From Phormidesmis sp. (lineage in GTDB: Bacteria; Cyanobacteriota; Cyanobacteriia; Leptolyngbyales; Leptolyngbyaceae): a stretch of DNA of 64,000 nucleotides. The notes below the pieces were generated by a model. It was not told where the DNA came from. It did no database searches and saw nothing but the letters and a program-made list of their open reading frames with translations. The translations under genes and the position numbers were made by a program. This document shows, piece after piece, positions 35,545 to 60,971 of this stretch. Every line of letters starts with the position of its first letter. Position 1 is the stretch's first letter. Where the stretch lies: positions 1,728,001-1,792,000 of the forward strand of contig CBDFJR010000002.1 in the NCBI GenBank assembly GCA_965248535.1, given 5' to 3'.

Positions 35545-37305
35545 TCAGCGGTCAAAGAATGCCGCGATCGATTGCTTTAAATATTCCAACTGAAAATATT
35601 CAAATAAGCGATCGCCAGAATCGGCTCTTACTAGCCCTAAAATCACCTCTGGCAGCGCCGCTCGACCCGGAAACACGAGATAGCGTGGCTCCCACTGTGG
35701 CTGAAATTTTTCCTTAAATTGATGCAGCCCTTTGAAGTTATAGAACTGGTTAAGGTGGTTAAACAGATAATTTAGAGCTTTCTCAACCCTGCGAGCAGTC
35801 GGCTTTGCGCCAACGCCTGCCAGGGGTGAAAGACTGAGATTAAAACTGTCGTATTTTGCCTCTTTAAAGTGTTGAAACATTGAGACAAACAAAAAATCCA
35901 TGGTGCCTTTTTCGGCATCTAATCGGTGACGCATTAGATCGATCGTCACTTCTCTGCGGTTATAGCCAGACAGCAAGTTTGCAAAAGCGACCACCTGATT
36001 GTCAGCATCATAGACGACGGCGATCAAGCAATCGCCCAAATAGTCTTCATCAAACCAGCCGATCGAAAACTGTTTTTCTGACCCTTGCTTGTCTTTTAGC
36101 CATTCGTCGCTGACGGGTTTTAGCTGCTGAAATAATTCTGGTGGAATCGGCGATTCATACAGGCTAAAACGGTAGCCTGCTTTGGCCGATCGATTCAGCG
36201 CTGTGCGGAGATTTTGCGCTGCTTTTCCTTTGAGGGTAAAGGTGGTTAAGTCTACGATCGCTTCTTCGCCGATTTGAATCTGCTGAAACCCTAGCTTAGA
36301 GTAGCGCTCTAGCTGATCGGTTGCGGTTTCATAAAAAGCGGGAAACCAGTCGTTGCGATCGCAAAATTGACTAAAGGTAAGAATTGCTTCGACCCGATCT
36401 TGCACCGGACCGATGGGATCGCCCAACGCGATCGCGGCTCGGCCTTTAGACACATAGGCGATCACACTTTGCCCAGACGGACTGAAATAGTAGCTCTTAT
36501 CTTTGAGCAACGCCAGCCGCGCTAGCGAGGTCTGCCCAGATTGGTCGATGATCTCTCTAGCGCGTCTACGATCGCTCACAGTTGCCGGAGCACCCCGCAG
36601 CAACACCGGCCGCAACAGCATGAACAATGCATAAATTAATGTGGTTGCACCGACAATATAAATAGAATTAATGAAAAACGCGCCATAGCGAGTGGTGGGT
36701 TCTAGCCCAGCGTTATCTTCAGTAAAAAAGATCGCTAACGTTTGCTCGATCGAGGCAAACAACCCAAAATTAATGGGTTCGCCATTGACTTTAAAGCGTC
36801 CATCCAGCACATAAAAGCCAGCCGTTCCATAGGCGATCGTAAACAGCAGTGCCCCAATCAAAACGCGAACGCCTTGAAAAATAGACGGGCGATCGGAGCG
36901 CGCCGTAAACGTTTTCCGCATCACGATGAGTTGGATGAGAGGCACGATCGCAAACAAGCCTTCTTCATAGTCCAGCCCTTTGATCAGATGGCTGGCGATC
37001 GAGAGTCCCAGCAGAGCCACCGTCAGCACCCAGGCCACATGCTTACGTCGTAAAAGATTGGCAGACAGCGTGAGCAGCAAAAAGCCCGTCAGTGCCGCAA
37101 AGACGTGCCCCCCCGCTCGAATCGGAAAGGGGAAAACAGGCATGAGCCATCTGACCCGTTCGGGGAGGCTGGGTGACACCGCCGACAATACATTCACTAA
37201 GCCGACTAAGCCCGTCCAGATCGAGACAGTCCATAGCGCGATGCGAGTTCGATGTTTTAGCCCGATCGACATGGGCTTAGGTTTGGGCCGCTCCTGTGCG
37301 CTCAT
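35545..37305 (-). CDS. MprF/DUF2156-type aminoacyl-phosphatidylglycerol synthase-like protein (short form, no full flippase domain)
   Basis: ~6 TM, then ALGDPIG, IGEEA, DLMRH, FYNFKGLHQFKEKFQPQWEPRYL. Confidence 0.88.
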   Translation of the reverse strand: MSAQERPKPKPMSIGLKHRTRIALWTVSIWTGLVGLVNVLSAVSPSLPERVRWLMPVFPFPIRAGGHVFAALTGFLLLTLSANLLRRKHVAWVLTVALLGLSIASHLIKGLDYEEGLFAIVPLIQLIVMRKTFTARSDRPSIFQGVRVLIGALLFTIAYGTAGFYVLDGRFKVNGEPINFGLFASIEQTLAIFFTEDNAGLEPTTRYGAFFINSIYIVGATTLIYALFMLLRPVLLRGAPATVSDRRRAREIIDQSGQTSLARLALLKDKSYYFSPSGQSVIAYVSKGRAAIALGDPIGPVQDRVEAILTFSQFCDRNDWFPAFYETATDQLERYSKLGFQQIQIGEEAIVDLTTFTLKGKAAQNLRTALNRSAKAGYRFSLYESPIPPELFQQLKPVSDEWLKDKQGSEKQFSIGWFDEDYLGDCLIAVVYDADNQVVAFANLLSGYNRREVTIDLMRHRLDAEKGTMDFLFVSMFQHFKEAKYDSFNLSLSPLAGVGAKPTARRVEKALNYLFNHLNQFYNFKGLHQFKEKFQPQWEPRYLVFPGRAALPEVILGLVRADSGDRLFEYFQLEYLKQSIAAFFDR

Positions 37306-38351
37306 TGGTTGGGTTCTCCCTGGGGTTGAGCGGTGGGTGCTGCTAAAGTCTTAGGCATCTCTGGCTGACGAGTTCCCTGGGTTACTGGCGGTTGCATGTC
37401 TGTTTTGGTTGCGGGAGGGGCATCAGCGGGCGATTTGGGAAGAGAAGCTCTAAATTGTTTGCCGACAAAGGTCAACGAGTCAGCTAAATGAGTGTGCCAA
37501 TAATTCCAGCCTACGTTTTTTCCGACGATCCCGTGTCCTCCAGGAAACACGTTGAATTGATTGGGAATGTTCAACTGATCAAGGGCTTGGTGAAACTGCT
37601 GAGTTGCCTGCAAATATTTAGCATCTTCTTTTCCTGCATCTAAGTACACCCGCAATTGAGGACGAATTTCTAGGGGAATTTGCTGAATAAACAGTTGAGG
37701 GCTGTTGTCTTCGCCACTATTATCTTTAAAGTAGCCCGTGTGGCTGAAGAGGATATGAAATTCATTGAGGTAGCGCAATCCAATATTCAACGCTCCCCAA
37801 CCGCCAGACGATAGCCCCCCGATCGCCCAAAATTGGGGTTCTCTAAGCGATCGATAGCGAGTTTTTACATCGTTGACCAGATCTGAGCCAATGAGGGTGG
37901 CCACTTTGCCGTTATCTCCGTCGTAGTATTGAGGATCCCATAATGGGCTACTGCCTCGATGGTCGTTGCCATCGGGTGTGATGATGATTGAGGGCGGAAG
38001 CTTACGATCGCGGTAAAGGTCATGCAGCACTGAGGTGAGGGCAGCTTTATCTTCAAAGTCTCGCTCGGTGCCGTGCCCTCCGTGCAGCAACACAATCACG
38101 GGATAGCGTCGATGGGGCTTTTTGCCATAACCAGGCGGCAGCACCACTCCATATCGCCGTTCACCACCCATTGCCTCGCTGTTAAACGTTTGGACTTTGA
38201 AGATCAGTCCTGTTTCTGGCTCGGCTTGCGGCGCGTCGATTTGAGGCGCACCTTCTATAAAAATATACCAATAGCCTGCGGCAGCTAAAGCCGTTAGACC
38301 GAGAGCACCGCCGATGATCAGGTTGCGATAGAGGTTTTTAGAACGCTTCAT
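37302..38351 (-). CDS. Membrane-anchored putative esterase (alpha/beta hydrolase)
   Basis: LPPGY, LLHG, GLSSGG nucleophile elbow, GGH; ATGA overlap with the MprF-like gene; start at MKRSK. Confidence 0.85.
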   Translation of the reverse strand: MKRSKNLYRNLIIGGALGLTALAAAGYWYIFIEGAPQIDAPQAEPETGLIFKVQTFNSEAMGGERRYGVVLPPGYGKKPHRRYPVIVLLHGGHGTERDFEDKAALTSVLHDLYRDRKLPPSIIITPDGNDHRGSSPLWDPQYYDGDNGKVATLIGSDLVNDVKTRYRSLREPQFWAIGGLSSGGWGALNIGLRYLNEFHILFSHTGYFKDNSGEDNSPQLFIQQIPLEIRPQLRVYLDAGKEDAKYLQATQQFHQALDQLNIPNQFNVFPGGHGIVGKNVGWNYWHTHLADSLTFVGKQFRASLPKSPADAPPATKTDMQPPVTQGTRQPEMPKTLAAPTAQPQGEPNQ

Positions 38352-38884
38352 GCAGAAAGAGACATAGCAAGACAGTTTGACCCATTTAGGATAGACGCAG
38401 TTTGCAGAAAATCTCAATCTGGCCTTGTCAGTTCATTTTTTGGGTACAGACTCAGGGTTTTTGGGCTTGGAGCGAGTTTTCTCAGACTCCTCAGCCTTCT
38501 ACGACGTGATGGTCTCGATTTGGGCACCCTAGTGCTAGACAGTCAGAGGCAAGTTTGGGGCAACTCTAACTGACTAACGAGATGAGTTTAGCGACTTATT
38601 CTGATGAGTGTCACCGTTGCTCTAGGGCTTTTTGCCTGCTTTATAAAGTGACAGAATTCATGAATAGAGCGGACGGGAAATCGGAATATTTGCTTCAGAG
38701 TAAACCCGTAGAACTACCGTGGCATGATCCCAGAGAGGATGTTAATTCTCTATAAAGACTAGAGACGCTTCCAAAACAAACCTTGACGACGCTGATGAGT
38801 TAACGACTTGAATCTTATCTGGATTTTTGAGTTAACTGATTGATCGAACGTCTCTTAAACAGTTAGTTCCTAAAGCATTGAGGC

Positions 38885-39520
38885 ATGACGATGAGCGAGA
38901 TTACTAAAGAAGAAGTCCGTGAAAAGCTCGGTAATATTGACCAAATTCGTGACATTATTTTTGGGTCACAAATTCGGGAATACGACAACCGCATCAGCAA
39001 GGTTGAGTCTGATCTCTTGATGGTGCAGCAAGACCTGCGCGATCGCCTTGAGCAGGTCAAAAACGGGGTTTCTATTGAGCTTAAAGCTGCCGTCGAAGCG
39101 ATAGAGAAAAAGCTGAAGCTGTTCAATTCTTCTTCTCAAGAAGAGTGTGCAGATTTACGGCAGCAGATCGATCGCGCCAATCGCAGATTTTCTAGCAGCA
39201 TCCAAGCGCTAGATGAAGCGTTAGATTCTCAAACTGCCTCGATTCGCAGCGACTTGGGTGACACCAAGAACAAGCTTCAAGACGATGCAGGAGCGCTAAG
39301 AGATTTGGTGTTAGGAGAACTCGATCGGCGGTTTTCTCAGTTAAGAGAGACAAAAGTCTCTAAAGATGACATCGCAGAAAGCTTGTTTGAGCTTGGAATG
39401 CGGCTAAAGGGAACAGAGTTTGTGCCTAAACTGCGAGAAGTTGCCAACAGCAGCCATCATACCTCTGTGCCTTTGTTAGAAACACGCAAATTTTCGGAAG
39501 AGTTGACTCATTCAACTTGA
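38885..39520 (+). CDS. Coiled-coil hypothetical protein
   Basis: IDQIRDIIFG…EY motif followed by heptads. Confidence 0.8.
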   Translation: MTMSEITKEEVREKLGNIDQIRDIIFGSQIREYDNRISKVESDLLMVQQDLRDRLEQVKNGVSIELKAAVEAIEKKLKLFNSSSQEECADLRQQIDRANRRFSSSIQALDEALDSQTASIRSDLGDTKNKLQDDAGALRDLVLGELDRRFSQLRETKVSKDDIAESLFELGMRLKGTEFVPKLREVANSSHHTSVPLLETRKFSEELTHST

Positions 39521-39559
39521 GGTTTCTTCCTCAAAATGGATTGCTATCAACCTTCTAAA

Positions 39560-39698: not shown

Positions 39699-39719
39699 CT
39701 GCGAATGCCGAACCCGTGA

Positions 39720-41948
39720 ATGAGCCTTGCCCCAACTATGGCTGAGACAAACGATCTTACCGTTGAGTCATCTCAATTTAGCCCGGCTGAAGTCGATCAG
39801 CTTGGGCGTTTTTTTGATCTGCTGGTTGACTTAGAAATCATTGATCTACCTGCAAAGTCTCTTGGCTCTGTTTTGGTTGATGCGATCGCGGCTGATGATT
39901 CTCTAGCTGCACCAGAGCCGGATCTGCCCGTTCAATTAGCTGACGCTCCTTTAGTTGCACCAGAACCAGATTTGCCCGTTCAACTTGAGTTCGGGGCGGC
40001 TCTCTGGGCTGACTCAACCGAGGCTGACTCAACCGAGATAGTGGCGATCGCACCGCCTGCTTTAGAGCCACCCGAAGATGCGGTGATGGCCCTAGATCTG
40101 CTGCGAGGGCTGGTGTTGGGGGCTGAAATGTCTGAGGTTCCTCAAAAACTGAGTCAACTAGAGCAACAGATCTATCAGCCCAATGAGTTAAAAAATCTGT
40201 TGCTGCCCTTGGTTGCAGAGCTTTTGCGTCAGACCGTGATCGACTCTCAAGAAGACGTTGTGCAAGCGATCGCGCCCATTATCGATCAAGTGATTCAAAG
40301 TCGAATGGATCACGATCGAGCCTTGATGGGTTTGGCCCTGGCTCCAGCAATTCCTGGGGCAATCACTGAGCAGATTCGCATTTCTCCTGAAGAGTTATCG
40401 ACGGCAATTTCGCCTGTGATAGGAAAAGCAATTCAAAAGCAGATCGTCATTGAGCAAAATACGATCGTCGATGCGCTATACCCCATCATTGGCGGCACGA
40501 TTTCTAAGTACATGGTGGAGACGATCCGAGCGATTAACCAGCAGGTTGAAGAAGCTCTCAGCCCCGCCGGAATTAAACGTAAAATTCGGGCAAAACTTCA
40601 GGGGGTTTCAGAGGCAGAACTCATTCTCAGAGAAGCGGCCCCTTTTACAGTGCAGGCCGTTTTTTTGATTCACAAAGGGTCGGGTTTGGTGATTTCAGAG
40701 ATCCAACGAACCGACAGCCAGCGACTAGAGTCCGACATGATTGCAGGAATGCTGACGGCAATTTGCAGCTTTGCCAATGACTGTATTTCTCAGGCTGGGG
40801 CTGTCTCAGAGCTAGACTCGATCGACTATGGCATGTCTAAAATCATTTTAGAAGTCGCTGGGCATTGCTATCTAGCGATCGTGATTCAAGGAGAGCCAAC
40901 GAAGCAATTTATTGAAGAAATTCGTCAAACACTCCGCAGTTTAGTGACTAACCATAGCACCGTGTTTGAGACATTTAATGGTGATCCTGACTCGGTGCCT
41001 AGTGCAGTCAACACGATTCTAGAATCGCTCAGAAACTCTAGTGCCCCAGACGAGAAATCGTCAGAAAATCGACCGTCTCCACTGGTGCTGATTGGCTTGG
41101 GCGTGTGCAGCTTAATTGCCATTCCATGGGGTTTTTTGCAGTATCGCGGTCATGTGAATCATCAGGCTGAAGTGACCACCACTGCTGCACTGTTATCGGC
41201 TCCAGAATTGGCGGTTTATCGGTTGATGGTGGAGGCTCACTCTGGCAAGCTCAAGTTAACTGGGCAGGTACCCAATCTTGAGTTGCGGCAGAAAGCAGAA
41301 CATCTTGCCACAATCGCCGCGCCCAAAAATTGGTCGATCGAGAACGATATTTTAGCGGTTGAGATTCCTCCAGATCCGGTTTTGACAGCGGCTGAGGTGC
41401 AGCGAGTCACGACTCTGTTTAATCGGATGGAGGGCGCTGCGATCGTAACTCGATACACAGAGGCTCAGATTTCAGTTGAGGGAAGCGTTCTTCGTCTGGC
41501 AGATGCCAAAACCATCACCCAAGGATTTCAGCGCATTCCGGGCGTGAAAGCTGTGTTTAGCACCGTGCAGGTGCAGCCATTAAAAATAGACTCTCGACTC
41601 TATTTTCCAACGGGTTCAGCCCTGTTAAACGCTGAGGATCTAAACAGCAAACTTCAGTCAGTCAAGTCTTTTCTTGATCTGCATTCTCAGACACCGTTGA
41701 AAATTATTGGCTATGGCAGTGCTAGCAATCGCCCGATCGCCGATCAAAAGCTGGCGCTTGAGCGTGCGATCGCGGTACGGACAGCCCTAATTGAACTGGG
41801 AGTTGCGCCCGATCGCTTGCAGGTCAGTGGGGCAGGGGGGTTGCCTCCGGGCATTGAGCCAACTCAACCTGATTGGCTGAGTCGATGCGTTGTGTTTGAA
41901 GTGATCCCTCCCAAACCAGGATCAAACCCATCAAATAAAGAAAGATAA
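39720..41948 (+). CDS. Membrane protein: helical repeats + alpha/beta domain + TM + BON-like + OmpA-like domain
   Basis: TM LVLIGLGVCSLIAIPWGF; KLTGQVP…IENDI (BON-like); YFPTGS…IIGY…LALERAIAV…L…GV…RL (OmpA-like). Confidence 0.85.
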   Translation: MSLAPTMAETNDLTVESSQFSPAEVDQLGRFFDLLVDLEIIDLPAKSLGSVLVDAIAADDSLAAPEPDLPVQLADAPLVAPEPDLPVQLEFGAALWADSTEADSTEIVAIAPPALEPPEDAVMALDLLRGLVLGAEMSEVPQKLSQLEQQIYQPNELKNLLLPLVAELLRQTVIDSQEDVVQAIAPIIDQVIQSRMDHDRALMGLALAPAIPGAITEQIRISPEELSTAISPVIGKAIQKQIVIEQNTIVDALYPIIGGTISKYMVETIRAINQQVEEALSPAGIKRKIRAKLQGVSEAELILREAAPFTVQAVFLIHKGSGLVISEIQRTDSQRLESDMIAGMLTAICSFANDCISQAGAVSELDSIDYGMSKIILEVAGHCYLAIVIQGEPTKQFIEEIRQTLRSLVTNHSTVFETFNGDPDSVPSAVNTILESLRNSSAPDEKSSENRPSPLVLIGLGVCSLIAIPWGFLQYRGHVNHQAEVTTTAALLSAPELAVYRLMVEAHSGKLKLTGQVPNLELRQKAEHLATIAAPKNWSIENDILAVEIPPDPVLTAAEVQRVTTLFNRMEGAAIVTRYTEAQISVEGSVLRLADAKTITQGFQRIPGVKAVFSTVQVQPLKIDSRLYFPTGSALLNAEDLNSKLQSVKSFLDLHSQTPLKIIGYGSASNRPIADQKLALERAIAVRTALIELGVAPDRLQVSGAGGLPPGIEPTQPDWLSRCVVFEVIPPKPGSNPSNKER

Positions 41949-42031
41949 ATTTCTGTTTATTTTAGCGACTTAATTGAGCATTCTTGTAGTGTGTTCTTTA
42001 GAGAGCGCACTTATCGAATTTGAAGTGGATA

Positions 42032-42562
42032 ATGTCTATAATTTCCAAAAAAGTGTGTTTAGTGGGTGACTTTGGGGTTGGTAAAACAAGTTTAATTCGT
42101 CAGTTTGTCGATCGCCAGTTCAGCGATCAATATCTTTCCACAGTGGGCGTTAAAATCTCTCGAAAGGCCATCGACGTTTTGAAGCCTAAATCACAGTTAA
42201 CTCAGAGTTTGCAGCTTTTAATTTGGGATCTTGAGGGCAACACTAAGTTTAAAGCGATTACTCCCAGTCATCTGCAAGGAGCGGCGGGGGTAATTATCGT
42301 GGGAGACGTGACTCGATCGGAAACTCTAGATCACCTATCTGGGCATATCCAGAGTTTTTTAGCCATAAATTCTCAGGGGGCGATCGTGCTGGCCCTAAAC
42401 AAGTCAGATTTGATTCAAGAAGAAGATCTAGACGTTTTGCTAAAACGACACTATGGAGATCAACCAAACCTCTTGGGCATTTATCCTACCTCGGCAAAAA
42501 CGGGAAATAATGTTAACCAAATTTTTGAAATCTTATCTCAAAAGCTAGTCGAATCACTATGA
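42032..42562 (+). CDS. Rab-like small GTPase
   Basis: G1 GDFGVGKTS, G2 YLSTVG, G3 WDLEG, G4 NKSD, G5 TSAK. Confidence 0.93.
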   Translation: MSIISKKVCLVGDFGVGKTSLIRQFVDRQFSDQYLSTVGVKISRKAIDVLKPKSQLTQSLQLLIWDLEGNTKFKAITPSHLQGAAGVIIVGDVTRSETLDHLSGHIQSFLAINSQGAIVLALNKSDLIQEEDLDVLLKRHYGDQPNLLGIYPTSAKTGNNVNQIFEILSQKLVESL

Positions 42563-42732: not shown

Positions 42733-45123
42733 ATGACTCTTTCTTCTGACCTTAATCGTCTGTGTCTCTTTAGTAAACTTTTAACGTCTCGATCTATCGA
42801 ATATCTGATCGTAGATCAAGAGTTAAAGATTAATGAAACCTCTGCTGGGGCACATCGATATGTCCAATCACCGAGTGATGTAGCACCCGGAAGAGATGTT
42901 CGTGATAGTTTTCCTGAGCTATATGGCTATGAAGAGACTCTCAATGATGTCTTGCAAAAACGGCAAGAGAGACTTGACATTACAGAAATTGCCCGATCGC
43001 TGACGCGCAGCGCTGAAGGGTCATTAGACTTGCCGACCCTTGTTTATATCGATCTCCATATTCTCGAAAATCAGTCTCTTGAAAATAGCTTTGTGATCTT
43101 GATAGAAGAGATTACAGAAGCGATGGTTTTGAGACAATCCCTCGTTCAAGCTGCCAATGAAGCGAATCTTTTATTGAGACAATTAGGGGCTTCTAAGAAA
43201 TATACCGATCAGATTATTACCGCTATCCCTGATGCCTTGATCGTGACAACGCGATCGGGAAAAATTAAAACAATTAATCCGGCTGCAAAAATTCTGTTTG
43301 AATACACAGAAGACGAGCTGCTGGGGCAACCGATTTCAAGTCTTCTTTCAGAGTTGCAGTTTCCCTATCCTACGATCGCTCAAAGTCCTCAAGCTTCAGA
43401 GTCTAGTGAACTTCCTAAAGAAATTGAAACCGTCTGTCAAACAAAGTCAGGTAAAAAAGTCTCGATCGCTGTTTCTTGCTCGACTCCACAGGTAGATATC
43501 GAAGACTTTCAAAGTGTGGTTTATATCGTTCGAGATATGACCGATCGCAAGCAAGCAGAACTGGCAAAACGTGAGTTTTTAGCCATGATTAGTCATGAAA
43601 TTCGCACCCCGATGAATGCTGTCATTGGCATTGCTGGCTTATTGCTAAACACTGAGCTAACGCCTCAACAGCGCGACTTGATAGAAATCATTGGAACCAG
43701 TGGCGATGCACTGCTCACGATCATCAATGACATTCTCGACTTTTCTAAAATGGAGTCTAACAAACTGGAGTTAGAAGAACACCCGTTTAATCTTAGAACT
43801 TGTGTTCAAGAAGCGCTGAATCTACTCACGCCCAAAGCGGTAGAAAAAGGACTCAAGCTTGCCTTTATTGCTGACGCGACTCTGCCGACGCTCGTCGTCG
43901 GAGACAGCACTCGACTTCGCCAAATTTTGATTAACTTACTCGGCAATGCCATCAAGTTTACGCCAACCGGAGAAGTGACAATATCCGCAACGGCCGTGTC
44001 AATCACGCCTACTCCCCAATCGACGCTCCTTTGCGGCATTGAGTTTGCAGTTAAAGATACAGGCATCGGAATCTCCCACGATCGCCGCAATTGTCTATTT
44101 CAAGCCTTTAGTCAGGTAGATGCCTCGATTACCCGGCAATATGGTGGCACGGGGTTGGGGCTGGCGATTTGTAAACAACTCAGCAACCAAATGGGCGGGA
44201 AAATCTGGGTTGAAAGTGAGCCAGGGCAAGGCAGCACGTTTTACTTTACGATCGTGGTCGAAGCGCCTTCTGAACCCGCCATCCCAGAGAGCACACGTCC
44301 TCGACTGTCAGTAGATACTCAGTTTGCTCAACAACATCCTCTGCACATTTTGTTGGCTGAAGATCATCTAGTTAATCAAAAGCTGATGGTGATGGTCTTG
44401 CAGCAGTTAGGCTATCAAATTGATGTGGTCAACAACGGCTTAGAAGTTTTAGACGCTCAACGCAAACAGCCCTATGATGTGATTTTGATGGATGTGCAGA
44501 TGCCCGAAATGGATGGCATCACGGCTACGCAACAAATTTGCCAAACTTGGGCACCGGACGATCGTCCCTACATCATTGCCATGACGGCTAATGCCCTGCG
44601 AGACGATCGTCAACGTTGCCTAGAATCGGGCATGGACGACTATATTACCAAACCCGTCTGCCTAGAAGCGTTAATGCAAGTGTTAAGCAAATGCAAGCCT
44701 CATAGACGTGCTCAGACCCAAGCCCAGCCAGAAAACACCTCCGATTTACATCTCGAATTAGCGCCTCAGACAGTGCGAATTGATTTAGATGCGCTGCAAG
44801 AAATCTATCAAATTGGCGGAAACTCGACAGAATTTTTGGTAGAGATGATTGACTGCTATCTCGAAGAAGCTCCTAAGCTTTTGAAAGCCGCAAGAGATAG
44901 TCTGCTCCAACAAGACCTTATAAAGTTGAAACGAACTGCTCACACGCTGCAATCGAGTAGTGCAACGCTGGGTGCAACAAAACTAGCAATGCTGTGTATA
45001 GAGCTTGAGTCAATGGTCATGACCGATTCACTAACGGCAGCCGCCCATCACGTTGCAGCGCTAGAACTAGAGTATCAGGAAGTAGAAACTGTTTTGCAGC
45101 AAGAACGCCAAAAGCTTCTATAA
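42733..45123 (+). CDS. Hybrid histidine kinase PAS-HisKA-HATPase-REC-Hpt
   Basis: [36 protein letters not shown]. Confidence 0.95.
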
Positions 45124-45249
45124 ATGAGACTTTTGAGACAACAAACCTCTCCTCAAGTTTTGCCAAATTTGGGGGAGCATTTTTTGGCGTTAGCTTTTAA
45201 CTGATTTGGTCATACTAACTGAGTAGTATCTACCCAATATGCTTGATGT

Positions 45250-46410
45250 ATGACAACCTTTTTTAGGGATCAGGTTTTTTTTGAGACCCGATCGCGTCAG
45301 ACGTTAAACCTGCGATCGTCTCAACGGGCTTGGGCCGTTCTCTGGCGTTTGGCAAAGCCCCTTATTGGCAGTGTGAGCCTGTGTCTCAGCGCTGTCTACC
45401 CAGTTCAATCCGTCCCTAAAATTCCTGTCTCAAATTCGGCTAAGTTTTTGATTGCTGGGGCAGATAACTTTAACCCTGGCTTAGAGTTGTTGCCCGTCAA
45501 ACCAGAGCAGCCTAGTTCAGCTAGGGATCTGATAGAAGCGCCATCTCCTAAAGTGGGACTAGAAAGCCTGAAAACTGACTTTCGCAACGATCGAGACAGT
45601 TCAGGTCAGCGGAATCGATTTCTGGGCGAAACGGCTCAGTTTCGCTTAAAAAATGGCAACATGGTTCAGTTTAAAACAGGGTTGAATTCCTTTAAGCAAA
45701 CGGGAGCAGAATCTGTCATTAATAGTCCGCTTCAAGTGGGCTGGGAGGGCAAACTTGGTCATTTTAAGGTGCGCGCAGAGGGCGGCGTTGACCTATTTGA
45801 TCGGTTGCCTGTCGCCCCTAACTTTAGCATTGAAGCCAGTGTTCCTATTTTGCCTAACGCTACGTTATCAGCAGTGTTAGAGAAATCGCCTTATAAGTTT
45901 AATGCTAAAACGCTCAATCATCAAATCTCAGCATTGCGGTTTGGGCCAACGTTGTATGTGCAAATCGATCGCAACACGAGTTTATTTTCTTTTTATCGTC
46001 GAGGCAACTACAGCGACGGCAATCACGAACATCAGTCTTTTACGAGACTAGAACATAAATTTGGACAGTTTTCTGTGTCAGCTAATCTATTCACTTGGAA
46101 CTACGAACACAACGCGCTGGATCGAAAGGGATATTTTTCTCCTCAAGATTTCTTGGTCTATAACGGCGAAATTGGTTGGGAGGGAGATGTGTTTAAGTTT
46201 CTGCGATGCGGACTCACTGCCTCCTTGGGGCGGCAACGGCTAAAGGGTGATTTCTCGAATGCAAACACCTATCAAGCTCACTGCATGGCTCAGGTATCCC
46301 CTCATGTGGAAGCAGGCTTGGGTTACACCTTTAGCAATGTCAAAACTCAAGGCACAGGAGATAGTTCCAATAGTCAGGCGCTGACAGGTCAACTACGCAT
46401 TACGTTTTAG
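45250..46410 (+). CDS. Outer-membrane beta-barrel protein (BcsC C-terminal-like export pore candidate)
   Basis: Alternating beta pattern, YSDGN and GYFSP motifs, terminal F. Confidence 0.7.
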   Translation: MTTFFRDQVFFETRSRQTLNLRSSQRAWAVLWRLAKPLIGSVSLCLSAVYPVQSVPKIPVSNSAKFLIAGADNFNPGLELLPVKPEQPSSARDLIEAPSPKVGLESLKTDFRNDRDSSGQRNRFLGETAQFRLKNGNMVQFKTGLNSFKQTGAESVINSPLQVGWEGKLGHFKVRAEGGVDLFDRLPVAPNFSIEASVPILPNATLSAVLEKSPYKFNAKTLNHQISALRFGPTLYVQIDRNTSLFSFYRRGNYSDGNHEHQSFTRLEHKFGQFSVSANLFTWNYEHNALDRKGYFSPQDFLVYNGEIGWEGDVFKFLRCGLTASLGRQRLKGDFSNANTYQAHCMAQVSPHVEAGLGYTFSNVKTQGTGDSSNSQALTGQLRITF

Positions 46411-46557
46411 CATCGGGATGTGAATCTTAGGATTAATATCACGTTGATTTCAGTGTTTGTATGAAAACGATTGAGTTAAATCGCATCTAACAGCGTTTTC
46501 AGACCATTGGCGGGAACACTAGACATAATCGTTAACAACAAAATCAAGAGCTAGCTC

Positions 46558-48882: not shown

Positions 48883-48884
48883 TC

Positions 48885-51563: not shown

Positions 51564-51626
51564 GGGCAGGACTGGCTCCTACTGTTGCCCTCACTCCCAT
51601 CTGTCACGTTCACCTACCAAACTGGT

Positions 51627-53624: not shown

Positions 53625-53689
53625 TCTCGCCTATCTGCTGGGTACACTAATCGAAGTCTAAAGTTATTCAAATTACTGGGTTTATTCTC

Positions 53690-54013
53690 ATGAGCTTAAT
53701 GGTCAAGGTCATCCAACCCTCTGGAATTTTGGACAGCATCAATGGAAACCGTCTCCGTCGGGAAATCAGCGATATGGTCGAAGATGGGGCTAAAGCGGTG
53801 CTGATTGACTGCCGCGAGGTCGAGTTTATGGACAGTTCTGGTTTAGGTGCTTTAGTGATGTCGCTCAAGACTGTTCGAGAAGCAGGGAGTAAGCTTTCAA
53901 TTTGTTCTATTAATGATCAGTTGAGAATCTTGCTTGAGCTGACGAGCATGGATGATATTTTTGAGATTTTTGCTACTCAGGAAGACTTCAATCAGACTGT
54001 GTTGGCAGCGTAA
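53690..54013 (+). CDS. STAS anti-sigma-factor antagonist (RsbV-like)
   Basis: FMDSSGLGAL phosphorylation motif. Confidence 0.93.
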   Translation: MSLMVKVIQPSGILDSINGNRLRREISDMVEDGAKAVLIDCREVEFMDSSGLGALVMSLKTVREAGSKLSICSINDQLRILLELTSMDDIFEIFATQEDFNQTVLAA

Positions 54014-54217
54014 CGCTATTTGAAGAGTACAAAAGGTCAGATTACCCATTTGTCTGATGAAACAGCAGATCCACCGGAGGGCACGGGCTATCGTGCCCTT
54101 TTACGATCGCTTGTCCCATAATTCTGTCAGTTTAACGAGAGTTTGATGGAATTTCCCGCGGGGGTTTCTCCTCTAAAAATGCTTCTAGAATGCGGGGAAA
54201 GACTGACTGAACTGACG

Positions 54218-55357
54218 TTAATTTAGCTGAATCTTGAGCAGTGAGCAGTCATCTTCAAACGGGATGCCACTGTTCAGCGCTAACACTTTCTGAACGATCT
54301 GATGAGGACTATTGAACGTTTCAGCAAAATCATGATTTGAAAGCAAATTGACAAAGCTATCTAGACTCCAAAATGTGTCATCGTCTTGCTTAATTTCATA
54401 AATTCCGTCACTAAAAAGATAGAGGGTGCTCGAAGCCTCAATGGTGCAAAAGCCGTTGACATAGCTGCTGTCCTTTAACATCCCGATCGGGGTGCCTCGT
54501 GTCTTTAACCGTTTGATTTGTGGGTCTGCATTTGGCTCTTGAGACAACAAAATTGCGGGTGGGTGTCCGGCGCTGGCATAGGTTAAAAGCCGCTTTTGCC
54601 GATTGTAAACGCCATACCAGATCGTAAAGTAGCGATCGTTTTGTCCATCCATTTGAAAGATTTCATTGAGCGCTTTCAACACATGGCTAGGCTGATAAAA
54701 GTTAACCCTATCTAGAGACTGCGATCGCAGCACATTTTGCATACTCACTGATGGCAGAGCCGAGCCTAAGCCATGCCCAGAAACGTCAAGCAGGTAGATC
54801 ATTAAATAATCGGGATCTAACCAGTAATAATCAAAACAGTCACCGCCCAGTTGTCGCGACGGAACAAATTGAAAGTCGATCGAAACCTCGCCGACTAGAG
54901 GCTTAGGAAGCAGCGATCGCACATATTCAGCCGCTTCGGTTAGTTCTGCTTCTAAGGTTTGTTTTTGAGCTTGCAGATCTTGGGCTAACTGATAGAGACG
55001 CAAGCCCGATCGCACCCGTGCTTTTAGCTCACTGACTTCGATCGGCTTTGAAAGAAAGTCGTCTGCTCCCGTATCTAGCCCCATAATCCGATCTTCGACG
55101 GTCGATCGAGACGTGAGCAAAATGAAGAATGTTTTAGACAATGACGCATCTGCTTTGACGTGGCGACAGACAGCTAACCCGTTCATTCCAGGCATTTGCC
55201 AGTCACAAATAATTAACGCTGGAAGATGATTTTTAGCTTGAATGATCCCTTCTTCACCCGTGCGCGCTAACAGCACTTCATAGCCCTGCTCTTGCAGCGT
55301 TCGTCTCAACACCATTTGAATAATCGGATCATCGTCAATAATTAAAATTTGTACCAT
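54218..55357 (-). CDS. REC + PP2C/SpoIIE phosphatase (RsbU-like)
   Basis: REC CDWQMP; GGD, DVSGHG, SAGHPP, SDG, DD. Confidence 0.94.
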   Translation of the reverse strand: MVQILIIDDDPIIQMVLRRTLQEQGYEVLLARTGEEGIIQAKNHLPALIICDWQMPGMNGLAVCRHVKADASLSKTFFILLTSRSTVEDRIMGLDTGADDFLSKPIEVSELKARVRSGLRLYQLAQDLQAQKQTLEAELTEAAEYVRSLLPKPLVGEVSIDFQFVPSRQLGGDCFDYYWLDPDYLMIYLLDVSGHGLGSALPSVSMQNVLRSQSLDRVNFYQPSHVLKALNEIFQMDGQNDRYFTIWYGVYNRQKRLLTYASAGHPPAILLSQEPNADPQIKRLKTRGTPIGMLKDSSYVNGFCTIEASSTLYLFSDGIYEIKQDDDTFWSLDSFVNLLSNHDFAETFNSPHQIVQKVLALNSGIPFEDDCSLLKIQLN

Positions 55358-55564
55358 ATTAATCAAAAATCCCTGAATAAAATTCGTTATCTAAGAAGTA
55401 ACAATTAGGCAATGTATGTATCAAAGTCAATTAATTGAGTGTAGCCTAGGGAGAGCATTAGAAACTCATAAAAACCAGTCTTGTAGCGCTGAAATCTGAG
55501 CACTTGAAGATGAACTAATTGACAATAGGTTTCCCATTATCTACTAAAAAATCACTCGCTGAAA

Positions 55565-55990
55565 ATGGTTAGCAAACATCAAATTCGAGTTAAATCTGCC
55601 CTGACTGAGCTAGGTCAGCTTTTGTCGTGGTTCAATCAATTAAATCAATCTATGATTCCCTCAACGGTGTGGGTGCAGTGTCAAACAGCGCTAGCTGAAG
55701 GGTTTACTAACGCGGTGCGTCATGCACACAAAAATAAGTCTGTTGAAACTCCCATTGATGTTGAAGTAACGATTCAAGAGGGGTTTCTAGAAATTAGAGT
55801 GTGGGATTATGGTGCCATTTTTGATTTAGCTCAAAAGCTTGAAGCAACCTCTAAAATCGTTGATCAGATCTCCATAGGCGGACGGGGCTTAGTGTTGCTT
55901 AATCGTATTTCTGACCGCCTTAGCTATGATCGAACAGCAGACCAACGCAACTGTTTGCTAATTGTGAAAAAATACTCGCTTACTGTTTAG
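55565..55990 (+). CDS. RsbW-like anti-sigma factor/serine kinase
   Basis: [19 protein letters not shown]. Confidence 0.92.
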
Positions 55991-58900
55991 TTCTCGCTAG
56001 CTTTTGAATCTGGTCAAACTTCTCTATCAGTTCTATAAATAAGCTCGAAGCTCCTTTGAGGTCACCTATTCTGGCTTTGCTTTCTAGCTGTGCGGCTGGA
56101 GCTTGAATGGCGATCGCGCCCATGTTTGCGCTAGAGCCTTTGATGTAGTGAGCTTCAAGCTCAACCGTGCGACAATCGTGTTCACAGATAGCCAACTCTA
56201 AGGCTTTTAAGTGATTGGGCAAAGTTTCAGATAGTGTTTTTAAAAGCTCTAACTCAAATGCCTCATTGCCATTAGAGAGATTGTGAAGATAGTTCCAGTC
56301 AATTAACTGATTGTGCTCTGATTGACTAGCATTTTTTTGACTAGAAGGCTGAACTGCGGCGGCTTGAATGACTTGACTCCAGTGGATCAGTTTAGCTGCT
56401 AGCTCTTCTTTGCGAACAGGTTTGCTAATGTAGTCGTCCATTCCAACATCTAAGCAGCGTGCTCGATCTTCTTTCATAGCATTTGCTGTCATAGCAATCA
56501 CGATCGTGCTGTTGACTTGACTTTCTAAACGACGAATTTCTTGAGTGGCTTCATACCCATCCAGTTCGGGCATTTGACAGTCCATTAAAATCAGATCGTA
56601 GTGAATTTTTGTGAGCAGATCTAAGACTTCTTGGCCATTGGCAGCCACATCTGCTTCATATCCTAAGTTTCTTAACTGGTTTAGGGCCACTTTCTGATTT
56701 ACCAAGCTGTCTTCTGCCAATAAAATCTTAAGTTTTATCTGACTCTTTGGGTTGATCGAAGCGGTTAGATTTGATGAATCAGGAACCACTTCTAAAACCG
56801 ATTGATTTGAGAGATGATCCGATTGATTGATGACTTCCATTAAGCAATCAAACAGACGAGACTGTTTAACTGGCTTGACCAAATAGGCAGCAAACCCAAG
56901 CTCTGCTGCATGATCAGTTCCTCTTTGATTGCAGAGGGAAGTCATCATCACTAACCGCGTCTCTGAGAGCGTTGAGTTAGCTTTAATTTGCTGGGCTAAC
57001 ATCTCTCCGTCTATCTCTGGCATCTGCATATCAAGAATGGCGATCGGGTAGGGGCTTTTTTGCTCGACTGCATTCTGCATAGCTATTATTGCGGCTCTGG
57101 CCCCTTCGGCTTCATCGACCTGCATTCCCCACGCAGAGACTTGGTGACGAATAATTTTGCGATTAGTGGCATTGTCATCTACCACTAAGAGTCTGAGTCC
57201 TTTTAAGCTGGCAGTCATTAGCTGCGTCGGCTGACTTATTATAGGATGAATTTGCTTCTTAAAGGAAATGACAAACCAGAACCTAGACCCTTGCTCTATC
57301 TGGCTTTCGACTCCAAGAGTGCCTCCCATTAAATCTATGAGTTGTTTGCAAATGGCTAATCCTAACCCGGTTCCTCCATACTTCCGGGTGGTCGAAGCAT
57401 CGACTTGAGAAAAGGGTCGGAATAGCTTTCTTTGCGCGTCTGGTGCGATGCCAATTCCTGTATCATTGACCGAAAATGAAATGGTGGCAGTGGTTGAAGT
57501 TTCTGATAGCAGAAAAGCCTGAATTAGGACTTCTCCAACGTTGGTAAACTTGACGGCATTTCCCGCTAAATTCATCAGCACTTGACGTAAGCGGCTTACA
57601 TCTCCGCGCAAATAATTTGGAACTTTTTTGTCAATTAATATCCCGATCTCAATGCCTTTTCGATAGACTGGCAATGCCAATAAATCAACGATTTCTTCGA
57701 TGCAGTTTTTTAGATCAAAATCCAAAACTTCTAGCTGCATTTCACCTGCTTCTAGCTTAGAAAAGTCTAAGATCTCATTGATTAACGTCAGCAGCCCATC
57801 GCCGCTCACCCGGATGGTTTCAGCAAAATCTCGCTGCTGTGAGTCGAGGTTAGAGTCTAAAAGTAAGCCCGTCATGCCGATAACAGCATTCATCGGCGTG
57901 CGAATCTCGTGACTCATGGTGGCTAAAAACGAGCTTTTCATCTGAGTGGCTTGCTCGGCTTCTCTGCGGGCGTGTTCTAACGCTAGGTTTTGTTGGGCGA
58001 GTTGTTCTCGCTGTTGAGTTTCTTGGGTTAGGAGACGAGATTGTTCTAGAGCAATGCTCACCTGATTGGCGAGTTGGCTGAGAAAATCGATTTCAAACGA
58101 TCGCCAGTGGCGAGGGGCAGAACATTGATGAGCAATCAGCAACCCCCACAACCCGTTGATTTCTAAAATGGGAACAATTAGGGTTGCCTGCACCTGAAAC
58201 TGGGCTAGCATCTCTTTGAGATCAGGCGAGAGATCTGCTTCTTTAACGTGGTCGATCGCCCAAGTCTGACCTTGCCGATCGGTCTGTTGATAACCACACT
58301 CAAAGCAGGTTCCTGGAATGGTGGAGTCAAGGGCAGAAGTCCAACTTGTGCCAACTGATTCTACAGCGATCGTGCCCTTCCGGTCTGGGCCAAATTGATA
58401 AATCACGACGCGATCGGCTTGAAGAAACTGGCGAACTTCTTGAACTGTTGTGGTGAGAATCTCTTGCAGATCGAGAGACTGACGAATGCGAAGGGTCGAA
58501 GCTGAGAGCAACTGCGCCCGATCGCTTTGCCGTTGCACCGATTCTTCGGCTTGTTTTTTCTCAACAAACTGACCAATTTGTTGCCCGATCGCGGTCATCA
58601 TCTCCAGCAGATCGCGATCGGGCTGATGAATTTTGTGGCTAAAGAAGGCAATCACCCCAAACACTTGATGGTTGCCTGAGATGGGGAACCCGATCGCCTG
58701 GTTCAACCCGGCGTGGCGGGCGGGAATCGATCGTAAAAACGTTTCATCCTGCACTAGGTCAGTCAGCCAGAGGGGTTTGCTGCCCTCCCAAACTCGCCCC
58801 GGCAGCCCCACCCCAGGGGCAAAGGTAAACGACTGGGTGACGGTTTGAAACTCGGCTAAGGGAGTCAGAGGCGCAGACCAAGCTTCGGTGAGCCGAAGGA

Positions 58901-60971
58901 CATTGGCTTGGGCATCGACTCGCCAAAATTCGCTCAAATCCCACCCTAAACGGTCACAAATTGTTTGAAGAACTCTAGAGATTGCCTGACACAGGGTGGA
59001 AGACTCGGCCAAAACACGAGCGATCGCATACTGAATGCTGCGGCGCTGGTCGGCCAATTTTAGGTCGGTGATATCTCGTGCGACCAACACAACTGACTGT
59101 GAAGACAGGGGAGAAATGCTAGCTGTAAAGTAAACGTCTCGCTCCTCGATCGTTAGACTATATTCACAGTTGAGGGTTTGTTGAGTGCTCAACGCGGTTT
59201 GAATCACCCCTAAGATCAGGTCAGCTTGGGAGGTGGGCAACGCTTCATGCAGGGTTTTACCAAGCATTTTGTCAGAAGGCTTGTAGAGATTGATGGGGTT
59301 AGTCGGAGCAATCTTGATGCACTGCCCCTCTGAGTCTCTGACCAATACCACATCGGTCATGGCAGCAAAAAGCGCTCCTAGCTCTGCTGCTGAGGCTTGT
59401 AGGGCGGTCTCGGCGTGCCGCCGATCGGTGATATCAATGCCCGTGCCAATCACATATTCGACTTGGCCTTGTGAGTCGGTTAGCGCGGTGTTAGACCAGG
59501 CAATGAGACGACGATCGCCCGATCGGGTGAGACAGTAGTTTTCATAATGACTAGGAAACTGTCCGATTTGTAGATCGGCAAAGAGGGCTTTGACTGGCTC
59601 AATTTGTTCATCGATTAAGAACAAATTCCAAAATAATTTGTTCCTGACTTCTTCAAACGAGTATTCGGTGACTTGCTCCGAGGTGCGATTAAACCGAACA
59701 ATCTTTCCTTGAGCGTCGAGAACAATCACGAGCGCATTGACCGTATCCAAAGTCGCCGCAATAAAGTCGCGCTCTTGCTCTAAGACAGTCTGGGTGCGCC
59801 GATGATTAAGAATTTCACGATGAATAAACGAATAAATCCAGACTAGAACCAGAAAGCTGAGTCCAATCCCCACTGAAGAAGTCAAGGTAGCTTTGCGAGC
59901 ACTGGCGATCGTGTCGGTTGATCGCTGTCTCAACAGGACATTTTCTTGGGTTTGCAGTTCATTGATCGCGTCGCGAATGCTGTCCATGACTTTGTTGCCA
60001 TAACCCGTTTCGACGATCGAGGTGGCGGCTTTCAATCCCTGCGTTCGGCGTATCTCGACGGTCTTTTTGAGTTCATCAAGCTTGTTGTTAATCAGTGATT
60101 CAAGAGCGTCTAGCTGTTGCTGCTGATGAGGGTTAGTTAGGGTCTGCGCTCGCAGATCTTGCAGTTCCTGCGCGATCCCTCTAAGCCCGGTGTAGTAAGA
60201 GTTTAAGTAGTGTTCTTTGCCTGTGATTAAATAGCCTCTCTGTCCGCTTTCGGCATCTTTGAGATCAGAGAGAATTTCGGTCAGGTCTAGAAGTATAGTG
60301 CGGGACTGGGCTTCTAAATTTTTGTCTTGAACAAATTCAGCATAACTTTGGTAAGAGACCATGCCCACGATCGCCAAAATCGTAGACGCTAGCCCAAACC
60401 CGATCGCAACTTTTGTAAAAAAATGCCGATTTGTCTTGATTTTCTGTTTACGGATTGTCTGAATTAGCTGTAGCTCTGCGAGATTTTGACGTAGCTCGAT
60501 TTGCCGAACAACCTGATGCGCCAGCGTTTTCAGCGCTTCAATCTGCTCGTGAGTCAGCGATCGTGGAACGTGGTCAAGCACGCAAAGTGTCCCCAAAGCA
60601 AAGCCTTCGGCGGTGATCAGAGGCACCCCGGCATAAAAGCGGATGTGAGGCTCACCTGTCACCAAGGGGTTGTCTGCAAACCGCTCGTCTGCCAGAGCGT
60701 CAGGCACAATAAAGGGTGTTGACTGCAAAATGGCATAGCTGCAAAATGCCAGTCTACGCGGGGTTTCTGTGGCTGCTAGCCCCACTTTTGACTTAAACCA
60801 TTGCCGCTTTGAGTCGAGCAAACTCACGAGGGCGATCGGAGTTTGACAAAGGTAGGCAGCCAGATGAGTGATATCGTCAAACGCCTCCTCAGAAGGGCTA
60901 TCTAAAATCTTGCACTCAAGCAGTGCTTGAAGTCTGGGCGCTTCTTCAGAAGGCGGCTGGGCAGGAATCAT
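55980..60971 (-). CDS. Multi-sensor hybrid kinase GAF-CHASE3-PAS-PAS-GAF-GAF-HisKA-HATPase-REC-REC-Hpt
   Basis: RFYAGVPL (GAF); [12 protein letters not shown] (CHASE3); PAC DITDR; ADRV…[18 protein letters not shown]; two REC domains; AHYIKGSS. Confidence 0.95.

Follow-up and report, generated by a model that had tools for sequence, protein, structure and literature searches.

Analysis of a 64,000-nt stretch of DNA from Phormidesmis sp. (contig CBDFJR010000002.1, positions 1,728,001-1,792,000 of the forward strand; hereafter the window) leads us to propose that the genes at window positions 45250-60971 form one conserved envelope-glycan system, in which a partner switch would control a cellulose-synthase-like enzyme directly, in place of cyclic di-GMP (c-di-GMP); we put the probability of this reading a little below 60%. 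It is carried by the genes, their motifs and their co-occurrence across genomes, by the SGL-clan fold of a periplasmic domain, and by an RsbW-type kinase domain that, in relatives, is inserted into the helical insert of the synthase itself. These genes belong to a block of 14 (35545..60971) that an earlier, sequence-only reading had taken for one integrated system. That view did not survive comparison of the sampled genomes, across which the Rup GTPase block and the MprF pair sort largely apart; independent assortment of the sub-modules, which the same reading had named as grounds for abandoning it, was found for these two parts but not for the glycan genes and the partner switch. The 14 genes form three layers and not one unit: a Rup block that is probably an optional input, an MprF-esterase pair that is likely a passenger, and a core made up of the barrel, the DUF3131 proteins, a glycosyltransferase family 2 (GT2) protein lacking PilZ, STAS, REC-PP2C, RsbW and a hybrid kinase. 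The core genes are:

45250..46410, + strand: likely outer-membrane beta-barrel of the BcsC/PgaA/YaiO type (BCSC_C match at E 6e-4, below the cut-off; no match to tetratricopeptide repeats, TPR)
46558..48882, + strand: N-terminal hydrophobic anchor, inserted serine esterase and DUF3131 domain a (D492, E560, candidate nucleophile E654; from domains and conservation)
48885..51563, + strand: signal/anchor, DUF3131 domain b (D166, E228, candidate nucleophile E321) and domain c (Thr734 in place of that Glu; from domains and model)
51585..53624, + strand: PilZ-less processive GT2 of the 'PCR-domain' cyanobacterial CesA type (from motifs, insert and similarity searches)
53690..54013, + strand: STAS anti-sigma-antagonist with Ser49, HcyA-like, starting 65 nt after the GT2 gene (Pfam/NCBIfam)
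54218..55366, - strand: REC-SpoIIE (PP2C) phosphatase, HcyB-like (domains, motifs)
55565..55990, + strand: RsbW-type serine kinase, HcyC-like (domains; orthologue fused into GT2 in 10 of 80 loci)
55980..60971, - strand: multi-sensor hybrid kinase HK2 (GAF, CHASE3, PAS, GAF, HisKA, HATPase, two REC, Hpt), HcyD-like (domains)

The conserved core and its synthase

Pfam/NCBIfam scans recovered all 14 open reading frames (ORFs) with the boundaries and domains previously described: in order, an MprF C-terminal domain, an esterase, a coiled coil, BON/OmpA, Ras/Roc, PAS-HisKA-HATPase-REC-Hpt, a weak BCSC_C barrel, esterase plus DUF3131, double DUF3131, GT2/Cellulose_synt, STAS, REC-SpoIIE, an RsbW-type HATPase and a GAF-CHASE3-PAS-GAF hybrid kinase. 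The plus-strand run reported earlier also stands, except that it comprises nine co-oriented genes and not eight, the STAS gene lying on the same strand. As had been claimed, no BcsB, GH8, PilZ or GGDEF match was obtained when the 14 cluster proteins were scanned, the remainder of the genome not being searched. Catalytic motifs are intact in the GT2 (DDG158, DAD313, TED432 and QRLRW470), the GTPase (G1, G3, G4 and G5), the STAS protein (Ser49), RsbW (N, G1 and G2 boxes), the PP2C phosphatase (metal aspartates) and the esterase (GxSxG).

The conservation of the core was followed in the best 80 of 276 GT2 relatives with flanks of up to 10 kb, a set whose loci are not independent, since identities run from 66-80% and Nostocales are over-represented; one of them, L053 of the unpublished genome G324, contributes to the fused, OpgC and 50-genome tallies given below, although none of our conclusions depends on this locus by itself. 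Near the GT2 gene we found STAS in 76 loci, DUF3131 in 74, REC-PP2C in 61, RsbW as a separate gene in 52 and fused in ten, a barrel in 36 and an HK2-like kinase in 34, and in 74/80 the STAS gene lay no more than 1.5 kb downstream of GT2. When only loci with at least 9 kb of downstream sequence were considered (n=63), STAS was present in 63, REC-PP2C in 54 and RsbW, separate or fused, in 54, and DUF3131 was present in 56 of the 58 loci with at least 9 kb upstream. The expectation that parts of this synteny exist in other cyanobacteria is borne out by recurrence of the core set in the 80-locus sample, and the set is also found in Proteobacteria. Locus L202, from another class of the phylum, has the gene content of the proteobacterial clusters, for which four of 27 matches were examined: the Pantoea, Vibrio and Paracoccus plasmid records each hold a GT2 (29-31% identity), three DUF3131 genes and a SpoIIE phosphatase, accompanied by STAS in Vibrio and Paracoccus, by an RsbW-like or 'ATP-binding' gene and OpgC in Pantoea and Paracoccus, and by a hybrid kinase in Pantoea, whereas the gene set was absent at the fourth, a distant Mesorhizobium match. 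A Klebsiella block of the same content is listed in PMC12974863. Two further observations concern these clusters. A protein of 300-335 amino acids with no Pfam match is encoded near the phosphatase or OpgC gene at L211:6142-7077, L212:7569-8576 and L202:12465-13433, and in a close relative of the window genome (L024:10028-11997 and upstream) the GT2 and esterase-DUF3131 genes are each split into two ORFs, which may reflect assembly error or decay.

The window GT2 has its nearest solved structures in BcsA (E 3e-42) and plant CesA (E 2e-32), matches MdoH/OpgH weakly (E 4e-6) and has its closest kin in Leptolyngbyaceae and one genome of Oscillatoriaceae. It carries D,D,D,QxxRW, lacks PilZ and has a helical insert of about 105 residues (~165-275) between the first and second Asp motifs (U1 and U2), so that the spacing from DDG to KAGN is 133 residues as against 28 in four distant orthologues; these features, together with the absence of bcsB, it shares with the PCR-type cyanobacterial CesA. 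In the GT2 model, used only for the insert helices and for family-level placement because of its poor overall quality (mean pLDDT 58), helices 180-219, 224-240 and 247-270 (pLDDT ~67-90) form a helical hairpin. As regards the plant P-CR, the matches of the insert alone did not include plant CesA, and the whole model, at the stated pLDDT, gave a root-mean-square deviation (rmsd) of about 9 A. Published synthases of the PCR type include Alr3757 of Nostoc PCC 7120 and SYNPCC7002_A2118 (PMC12430437, PMC4851311). A null mutant of the latter loses a cellulase-sensitive layer, able to bind a cellulose-binding domain, between peptidoglycan and outer membrane, and grows slowly with minicells and division defects, a phenotype seen at low salinity only (PMC4851311). 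Function and partners of the PCR-type synthase were called unresolved in a 2025 review (PMC12430437), and the available text of neither paper names DUF3131, a barrel or a switch as partners.

A gene fusion ties the switch to the synthase. In 10/80 loci the turn of the GT2 helical insert, a site that maps after helix 180-219 in the model, harbours an RsbW domain 46-53% identical to that of the window, giving proteins of 798-814 amino acids; L204 (788 amino acids) has the same insertion with an RsbW domain of 34% identity, which brings the number of fused loci to 11. No separate RsbW gene was found nearby in the ten fused loci or in L204. A2118 is 788 amino acids long as against 693, an insertion left unexplained in PMC4851311; judged by length, which falls in the range of the fused forms (788-814 amino acids), this insertion is likely to be an RsbW domain.

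BCSC_C was matched by 20/30 barrel orthologues at E<=0.05 (best 2.4e-5), and an Atlas look-up gave 0.95-0.98 to clusters named BcsC-C, YaiO and PgaA, with a low recognition value; a profile search against solved structures yielded no match. Like Bcs systems (BcsA-B-C-Z), the cluster combines a processive GT2, a periplasmic protein of glycosidase fold and an outer-membrane barrel. Unlike them, it has a triplet of SGL-clan domains and a phosphoswitch and lacks BcsB, PilZ, a TPR array and GH8; accordingly, the features of Bcs types I-III (BcsB, PilZ, TPR-bearing BcsC/BcsK and GH8 BcsZ in the operon) were not found among the 14 proteins scanned. We regard the core as a variant within the synthase-dependent exopolysaccharide systems; its parts have been seen before, though separately. 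Synteny, conservation across phyla and the RsbW-in-synthase fusion uphold the earlier proposal of a non-canonical synthase-dependent glycan system with SGL-clan periplasmic domains and a partner switch.

DUF3131 domains and the identity of the polymer

Kinship of DUF3131 to the (alpha/alpha)6 enzymes active on beta-1,2-glucans, previously put forward, is confirmed at the level of fold. The model of domain b (pLDDT 94) has its 15 best structural matches within the SGL clan (Z 35.0-24.2), the next fold following at Z 22.5; the best match is GH189 (8WY1; Z 35.0, rmsd 3.0 A, 347 residues aligned), with GH144 at Z 30-32, GH194 and GH192 at about 28 and GH162 at about 24; GH193 is a family with no solved structure. 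Sequence similarity is far lower, 10-15% identity to clan members. In profile searches against solved structures DUF3131 matched only the N-terminal part of GH189 entries, and hhalign aligned the N-terminal third with GH189 at a probability of 95. The two families share, in addition to the fold, an alignment of SALD with SSVD and probably a Glu at the position of the GH189 nucleophile. They differ in setting: DUF3131 domains stand alone, either secreted or anchored, come in threes of which one is degenerate, and are coupled with a CesA-like GT2, whereas GH189 is a domain of the Cgs polypeptide; PF10091 was not found in the window genome.

Residue conservation was scored over 357 DUF3131 domains, many of them from close kin. 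The Glu of the motif TAV[ST]E is kept in 39/39 type a, 63/63 type b and 34/36 other cluster domains and in 128/144 diverse representatives, and is replaced by Thr in 63/63 type c domains. This Glu (AVSE) aligns with the Glu of GH189 WGISE in two of three MAFFT modes, GH144 having Ala there, and the spacing from Gln to Glu is 15 in 7/7 GH189 sequences and in 125/150 scored DUF3131 domains. We take the WGISE residue to be nucleophile E1442, as the 86 residues that separate it from the preceding Glu of ASEAR equal the spacing of E1356 and E1442 in TiCGS of GH189 (PMC10834661). Since the candidate nucleophile Glu is kept in domains a and b and is Thr in domain c, the former are likely to be retaining enzymes of the GH189 kind, perhaps transglycosylases, and the latter is likely to be enzymatically inactive. 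The residues that define the clan (Glu, Phe and Tyr; XcSGL E239, F286 and Y367) have near-invariant Glu candidates in DUF3131, on which sequence alignments disagree.

By motif search, the DUF3131 branch is not covered in the portion of the SGL-clan paper available to us, and the RLGYE signature occurs 0 times in its sequence files, in which line breaks could hide some copies. Identity of DUF3131 with Group 4 of that paper was ruled out, the listed sequences, read by eye, lacking DUF3131 motifs. Judged by titles and abstract openings, none of the papers found to mention DUF3131 deals with its function. Polyproteins of about 1300-1800 amino acids, likely to contain three or four DUF3131 domains, are encoded at L021, L043, L048, L066, L091 and L100.

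The strict beta-1,2 specificity of the clan, according to the SGL-clan paper, and the cellulase sensitivity of the published product are the main tension in our data. An alternative to a cellulose-like polymer is that the GT2 makes a glucan with beta-1,2 linkages, similar to the osmoregulated periplasmic glucans, which DUF3131 domains would trim, cyclise or graft. Besides the fold and its associated specificity, this possibility has in its favour the occurrence of the acyltransferase OpgC in 3/80 cyanobacterial loci, in L202 and L208 and in Pantoea and Paracoccus, as well as the restriction of the synthase mutant phenotype to low salinity (PMC4851311). However, BcsA and plant CesA, not MdoH/OpgH, are the closest solved relatives of the GT2, the synthase-dependent layer shows both cellulase sensitivity and binding of a cellulose-binding domain (PMC4851311), and the barrel suggests export of a long chain, so that we regard a beta-1,2-containing product as possible, if unlikely.

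The partner switch and its output

The four regulatory genes of the core match hcyA-D of Nostoc punctiforme, and with the prior cataloguing of the GTPase block (PMC4316618; see below) this removes part of the statement that the mechanism is not known to have been characterised (PMC9127174). A cloning primer of PMC9127174, whose label in the table is ambiguous, has a match at the beginning of the cluster RsbW gene in 15 loci, two of which, L086 and L098, agree with it exactly; this search covered the relative loci, and the window RsbW, which is 40-72% identical to cluster RsbW proteins, is not itself among the matches. The hcy locus tags F1682, F1684 and R1685 fit the strands +, + and - of the cluster, and Ser49 of the STAS protein agrees with the S49A construct of that study. 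Both gene sets thus combine a STAS protein, a phosphatase, an anti-sigma-type kinase and a GAF/PAS hybrid kinase in one block. In the last GAF domain of HK2, Cys residues at 889, 892 and 950 have a spacing, compared without alignment, unlike the published twin-Cys pair C833/C841. Whereas PMC9127174 confines the hcy cluster to Nostoc, Calothrix and Tolypothrix, the switch block extends to other cyanobacterial families and, in part, to Proteobacteria. The window RsbW retains the Asp of the G1 box, as do 10/10 fused RsbW domains, unlike most separate HcyC-type orthologues.

In N. punctiforme, HcyA binds HcyC, deletion of hcyA blocks hormogonium formation induced by UV-A together with induction of gvpA and pilM, and deletion of hcyC leads to an early burst (PMC9127174). 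The target of HcyC was left open in that 2022 study, which showed no binding to SigC, SigF or SigJ and in whose available text the word 'cellulose' is absent. We propose, from sequence comparison, that the synthase is this target, because synteny, the primer match and the RsbW-in-synthase fusion tie the switch to it. The locus tags of Anabaena 7120 agree with such a link: alr3757 encodes the synthase (PMC12430437) and Alr3760 is a candidate serine kinase (bioRxiv 10.64898/2026.04.08.717354), alr3760-alr3761 forming an operon with a kinase; the available text of PMC13712970 mentions neither alr3757-alr3760 nor 'cellulose'. In N. punctiforme the PCR-type synthase is given as Npun_F1469, far from Npun_F1682-R1685 (PMC12430437). 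We found no paper linking a PCR-type synthase to a STAS, anti-sigma or RsbW partner switch, although the subscription literature may hold part of the answer.

Partner-switch control of polysaccharide synthesis without a sigma factor has reportedly been found in SypA/SypE of Vibrio. It is also described for the HenR/All4160/Alr3423 switch of Anabaena (bioRxiv 10.64898/2026.04.08.717354), in which STAS is fused to a priming sugar transferase, whereas in the present system a processive synthase either contains the kinase as a fused domain or is its likely docking site.

Our working scheme is as follows. The PilZ-less GT2 would polymerise a beta-1,4-linked, cellulose-like chain, which the three periplasmic DUF3131 domains may cut and re-join, or bind, domains a and b acting as retaining GH189-like transglycosylases and domain c as a binding or scaffold pseudo-enzyme; the barrel would export part of the polymer, and a swappable enzyme (serine esterase here, OpgC or PIG-L elsewhere) would decorate it. 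HK2, joined by the hybrid kinase HK1 where a Rup module is present as optional upstream input, would pass phosphate via Hpt to REC-PP2C, which together with RsbW would set the phosphorylation of STAS Ser49, and RsbW, toggled by STAS binding, would dock at the tip of the coiled-coil insert of the synthase. Two published questions, the partners of the PCR-type synthase (PMC12430437) and the target of HcyC (PMC9127174), would then merge into one testable claim. This study adds the primer-level identification with hcyA-D, the pattern of probably active and inactive DUF3131 copies in the triplet and an assignment of each of the 14 genes to a core, an optional or a passenger layer. If the scheme is right, a cellulose-type synthase is gated independently of c-di-GMP and its insert has a regulatory role, DUF3131 is an unclassified branch of the SGL clan, possibly of transglycosylases, the 'cyanobacterial cellulose' made by PCR-type synthases may be a remodelled polymer, and the Rup GTPase system gains a concrete candidate output.

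Several findings weigh against this scheme. RsbW is absent within 10 kb in 9/63 well-covered loci. The insert is absent from the proteobacterial GT2 orthologues, whose switch must therefore use another contact. In a FastTree phylogeny from which the insert columns, L202 and short rows were left out, the ten fused synthases group in a single clade, away from the long-branched L204, and the fusion may accordingly have arisen in only one or two events (two changes on the tree). In 47/52 separate RsbW proteins (loci L025-L099) the G1 Asp is replaced by Ser, which makes their kinase activity doubtful, and HcyC-type proteins may be kinase-impaired binders. As for DUF3131, hhalign gave no alignment with the C-terminal halves of GH189 and GH144 and the acid Glu is not aligned consistently, so that the nucleophile assignment, made from sequence only, is a lead and not a result. 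Finally, the hcyA and hcyC mutants alter hormogonium gene expression, which suggests a transcriptional output (PMC9127174).

That last point could mean that the switch acts through transcription or development, on a sigma factor or hormogonium regulator, and adjoins the synthase for co-regulation only. Such an arrangement would be the canonical one, partner switches being known as regulators of sigma factors. We nevertheless consider it unlikely, given that the synthase itself contains RsbW at 11 loci, that the switch trio remains with the synthase in Proteobacteria, that none of the 14 cluster genes was identified as coding for a sigma factor and that HcyC did not bind the sigma factors tried (PMC9127174).

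Decoration, the Rup block and neighbouring genes

Two genes next to the cluster and on the opposite strand from its plus-strand run make up the MprF-esterase pair:

35545..37305, - strand: MprF-like aminoacyl-lipid synthase with a short membrane domain (~5 hydrophobic segments), likely passenger (PF09924, E 6e-93)
37302..38417, - strand: PF00756 serine esterase, usual MprF partner, likely passenger (4-nt overlap with the MprF gene)

The MprF-like protein scores below the cut-off for bifunctional MprF, and the pair has the arrangement of AlaDAGS-PesT, in which one operon encodes both an MprF C-terminal domain and an esterase. Of 30 MprF loci, 21 have an esterase gene no more than 1.5 kb away, and such pairing has been described before (PMC6103681). 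MprF and the cluster occur together in eight of 301 genomes sampled across the phylum and are adjacent only in the window genome; in a set of 50 of the 80 genomes that was searched whole, the esterase occurs in 28 and the pair lies beside switch genes in one (G306, L205). In a close relative with the fusion esterase-DUF3131, an MprF 88% identical to that of the window is encoded on a contig other than that of the cluster. The pair is thus likely to be a separate membrane-lipid system next door, a passenger. The window genome has a second MprF-like gene (G000:C5:1231733-1233415, L206; 66% identity) with no esterase match nearby and a next gene that, by eye, is transposase-like.

A cluster esterase is present in 3/80 loci, as part of a fusion in L024 but as a free protein in L048 and L063, and these three form with that of the window a clade of their own (100/99) within the MprF-partner esterase family. 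We rejected the idea that the fused esterase is a recent copy of the neighbouring one, as the two are 59% identical and, the cluster esterase grouping with those of relatives, fall in separate clades. The place of the cluster esterases within that family invites the proposal that the MprF-like enzyme makes an aminoacyl-lipid from which the DUF3131-fused esterase transfers the amino acid to the chain, all the more so as the pair adjoins the cluster here and in G306, and PesT, the esterase that accompanies a lipid aminoacylase, has been proposed as a transferase (PMC6103681). Against this stand the small number of loci with an esterase, the location of MprF elsewhere in 7/8 genomes with both and in the close relative with the fusion, the unresolved role of PesT and the hydrolase nature of other MprF partners (PMC6103681). 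Aminoacylation of the glycan is therefore possible but weakly supported, and the transfer route itself seems to us quite doubtful.

Other candidate decorating enzymes near GT2 are PIG-L in 39 of the 80 loci, GH26-like proteins in 12 and OpgC in three, and because these and the esterase replace one another, decoration looks like a variable slot. The PIG-L de-N-acetylase, absent from the window genome, is mostly encoded between GT2 and STAS (e.g. L002:1120-1842), which would be odd for a plain glucan. Three kinds of protein, namely the GH26-like secreted ones (Pfam E 7e-4 to 4e-3 in the three scanned, below the cut-off), a GH2 of the Pantoea cluster that bears a mannosidase Ig domain and, in the Vibrio cluster, a hexapeptide-repeat nucleotidyltransferase, could indicate that the polymer contains mannose, as in a beta-1,4-glucomannan, donor specificity being something that the GT2 sequence does not reveal. 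All of these genes are missing from the window cluster, however, and GH26 also includes lichenases and xylanases, which makes a mannose-containing polymer distinctly improbable. Possible hints of mannose in copies of the cluster lie at L007:12716-13855, L211:17901-20096 and L212:10308-11432. The most far-reaching version of our proposal, in which a synthase of the type proposed as ancestral to plant CesA is gated by an anti-sigma-type kinase that docks on its PCR-like coiled coil, the sought target of HcyC, under a switch fed by the Rab-like GTPase, and in which a new family of retaining, GH189-like transglycosylases turns the chain, within the periplasm, into a branched or cyclic glucan with beta-1,2 linkages that is here aminoacylated from a tRNA-derived lipid, appears very unlikely as a whole.

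The remaining genes, and a possible boundary between them and the core, are:

38885..39520, + strand: coiled-coil protein of a Group 1 Rup module (Pfam/NCBIfam, profile match)
39720..41948, + strand: Rup membrane partner with a cytoplasmic domain, one transmembrane helix (~residue 452), BON and OmpA (domains)
42020..42562, + strand: Group 1 Rup Rab-like GTPase, G3 without the catalytic Gln (WDLEGN at residue 69; motifs)
42733..45123, + strand: Rup output hybrid kinase HK1 (N-terminal domain, PAS, HisKA, HATPase, REC, Hpt; domains)
45150..45175, + strand: hairpin with a T-run that separates the Rup block from the barrel gene, a weak possible transcription break (longest stem found, 11 pairs)

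The hairpin is one of 17 hairpin/T-run sites in the region, as against 20.4 in shuffled sequences, and a scan for promoters and terminators gave no excess. By neighbourhood, G3 motif and invariant Gln, the four genes are a Group 1 Rup system as catalogued in 2014, with a coiled-coil protein, a DUF-TM-OmpA protein, a Gln-less GTPase and a kinase or cyclase with an invariant Gln (PMC4316618), and we accordingly rejected the block as a new system. Gln139 of HK1 is invariant in 13/13 Rup-linked kinases, its identity with the published residue being an inference of ours. What differs from the catalogued systems is the recurrent linkage to a partner switch and a glycan synthase and the nature of the output, a hybrid kinase with Hpt. 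An Atlas look-up of the cytoplasmic domain of the OmpA protein returned only unnamed clusters (0.81-0.82) and did not confirm a longin/roadblock relationship.

Among the 301 genomes (two DUF3131 fragments and four weak coiled-coil matches being dropped), DUF3131 was found in 18, in 16 with full domains, and the Rup coiled coil in 41, in 37 at E<1e-20. The two occurred together in six genomes and were adjacent in four, the window genome and three of one genus; 31/37 genomes with a strong coiled-coil match lacked DUF3131, and 10/16 with full DUF3131 domains lacked a strong coiled coil. In the 80-locus sample, Rup lies within 10 kb of GT2 in 15 loci (13 Nostocaceae, two Leptolyngbyaceae), always beyond the switch genes and, in Nostoc, often between RsbW and HK2; only in the window is it directly upstream of the barrel. 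Of the 50 genomes searched whole, 19 had the coiled-coil gene, four of them on the synthase contig within about 35 kb, a ratio biased low because 11 of the 15 loci with a linked Rup block fell outside the selection. Linkage of Rup to the cluster, although optional, is real and inherited, and since Rup abuts the switch genes where it is linked, it points to signalling rather than localisation; that HK1 feeds REC-PP2C has, in our estimation, slightly less than an even chance. The claim that the GTPase places synthesis within the cell finds no support, the Rup output being a histidine kinase and a YFP fusion of A2118, a synthase of the same type, being uniform and non-punctate (PMC4851311). That all 14 genes nevertheless make up one machine whose Rab-like GTPase fixes the cellular site of synthesis, as co-orientation of nine genes, a linkage that in two families exceeds chance adjacency and the division defects of the published synthase mutant might suggest, is the least probable reading of all, given that most Rup modules lack the cluster and most clusters lack Rup, that Rup where linked adjoins the switch, that the fusion protein is uniform (PMC4851311) and that the MprF pair assorts separately.

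Two loci are of note with regard to Rup. In the genome of L024 the cluster is bordered on both sides by a Rup block. At L193:5273-7442 a Rup module is flanked by a lone STAS gene and a PIG-L gene, the glycan cluster lying on a different contig, an arrangement that looks like a remnant of former linkage.

Elsewhere in the window, an ECF sigma factor and an RskA-type anti-sigma factor are encoded at 1907-3320, about 50 kb from the partner switch. A TPR-CHAT protein gene divergent from that of a TPS-domain protein, together with a second TPS-domain protein, lies at 3564-9137 and 15160-17358, and a PIN-domain gene with a small upstream ORF, likely a toxin-antitoxin pair, at 9197-9972. A stretch of about 55% GC at 18424-21471 encodes a protein of 1015 amino acids in which a periplasmic-binding-protein domain is joined to DUF4912.

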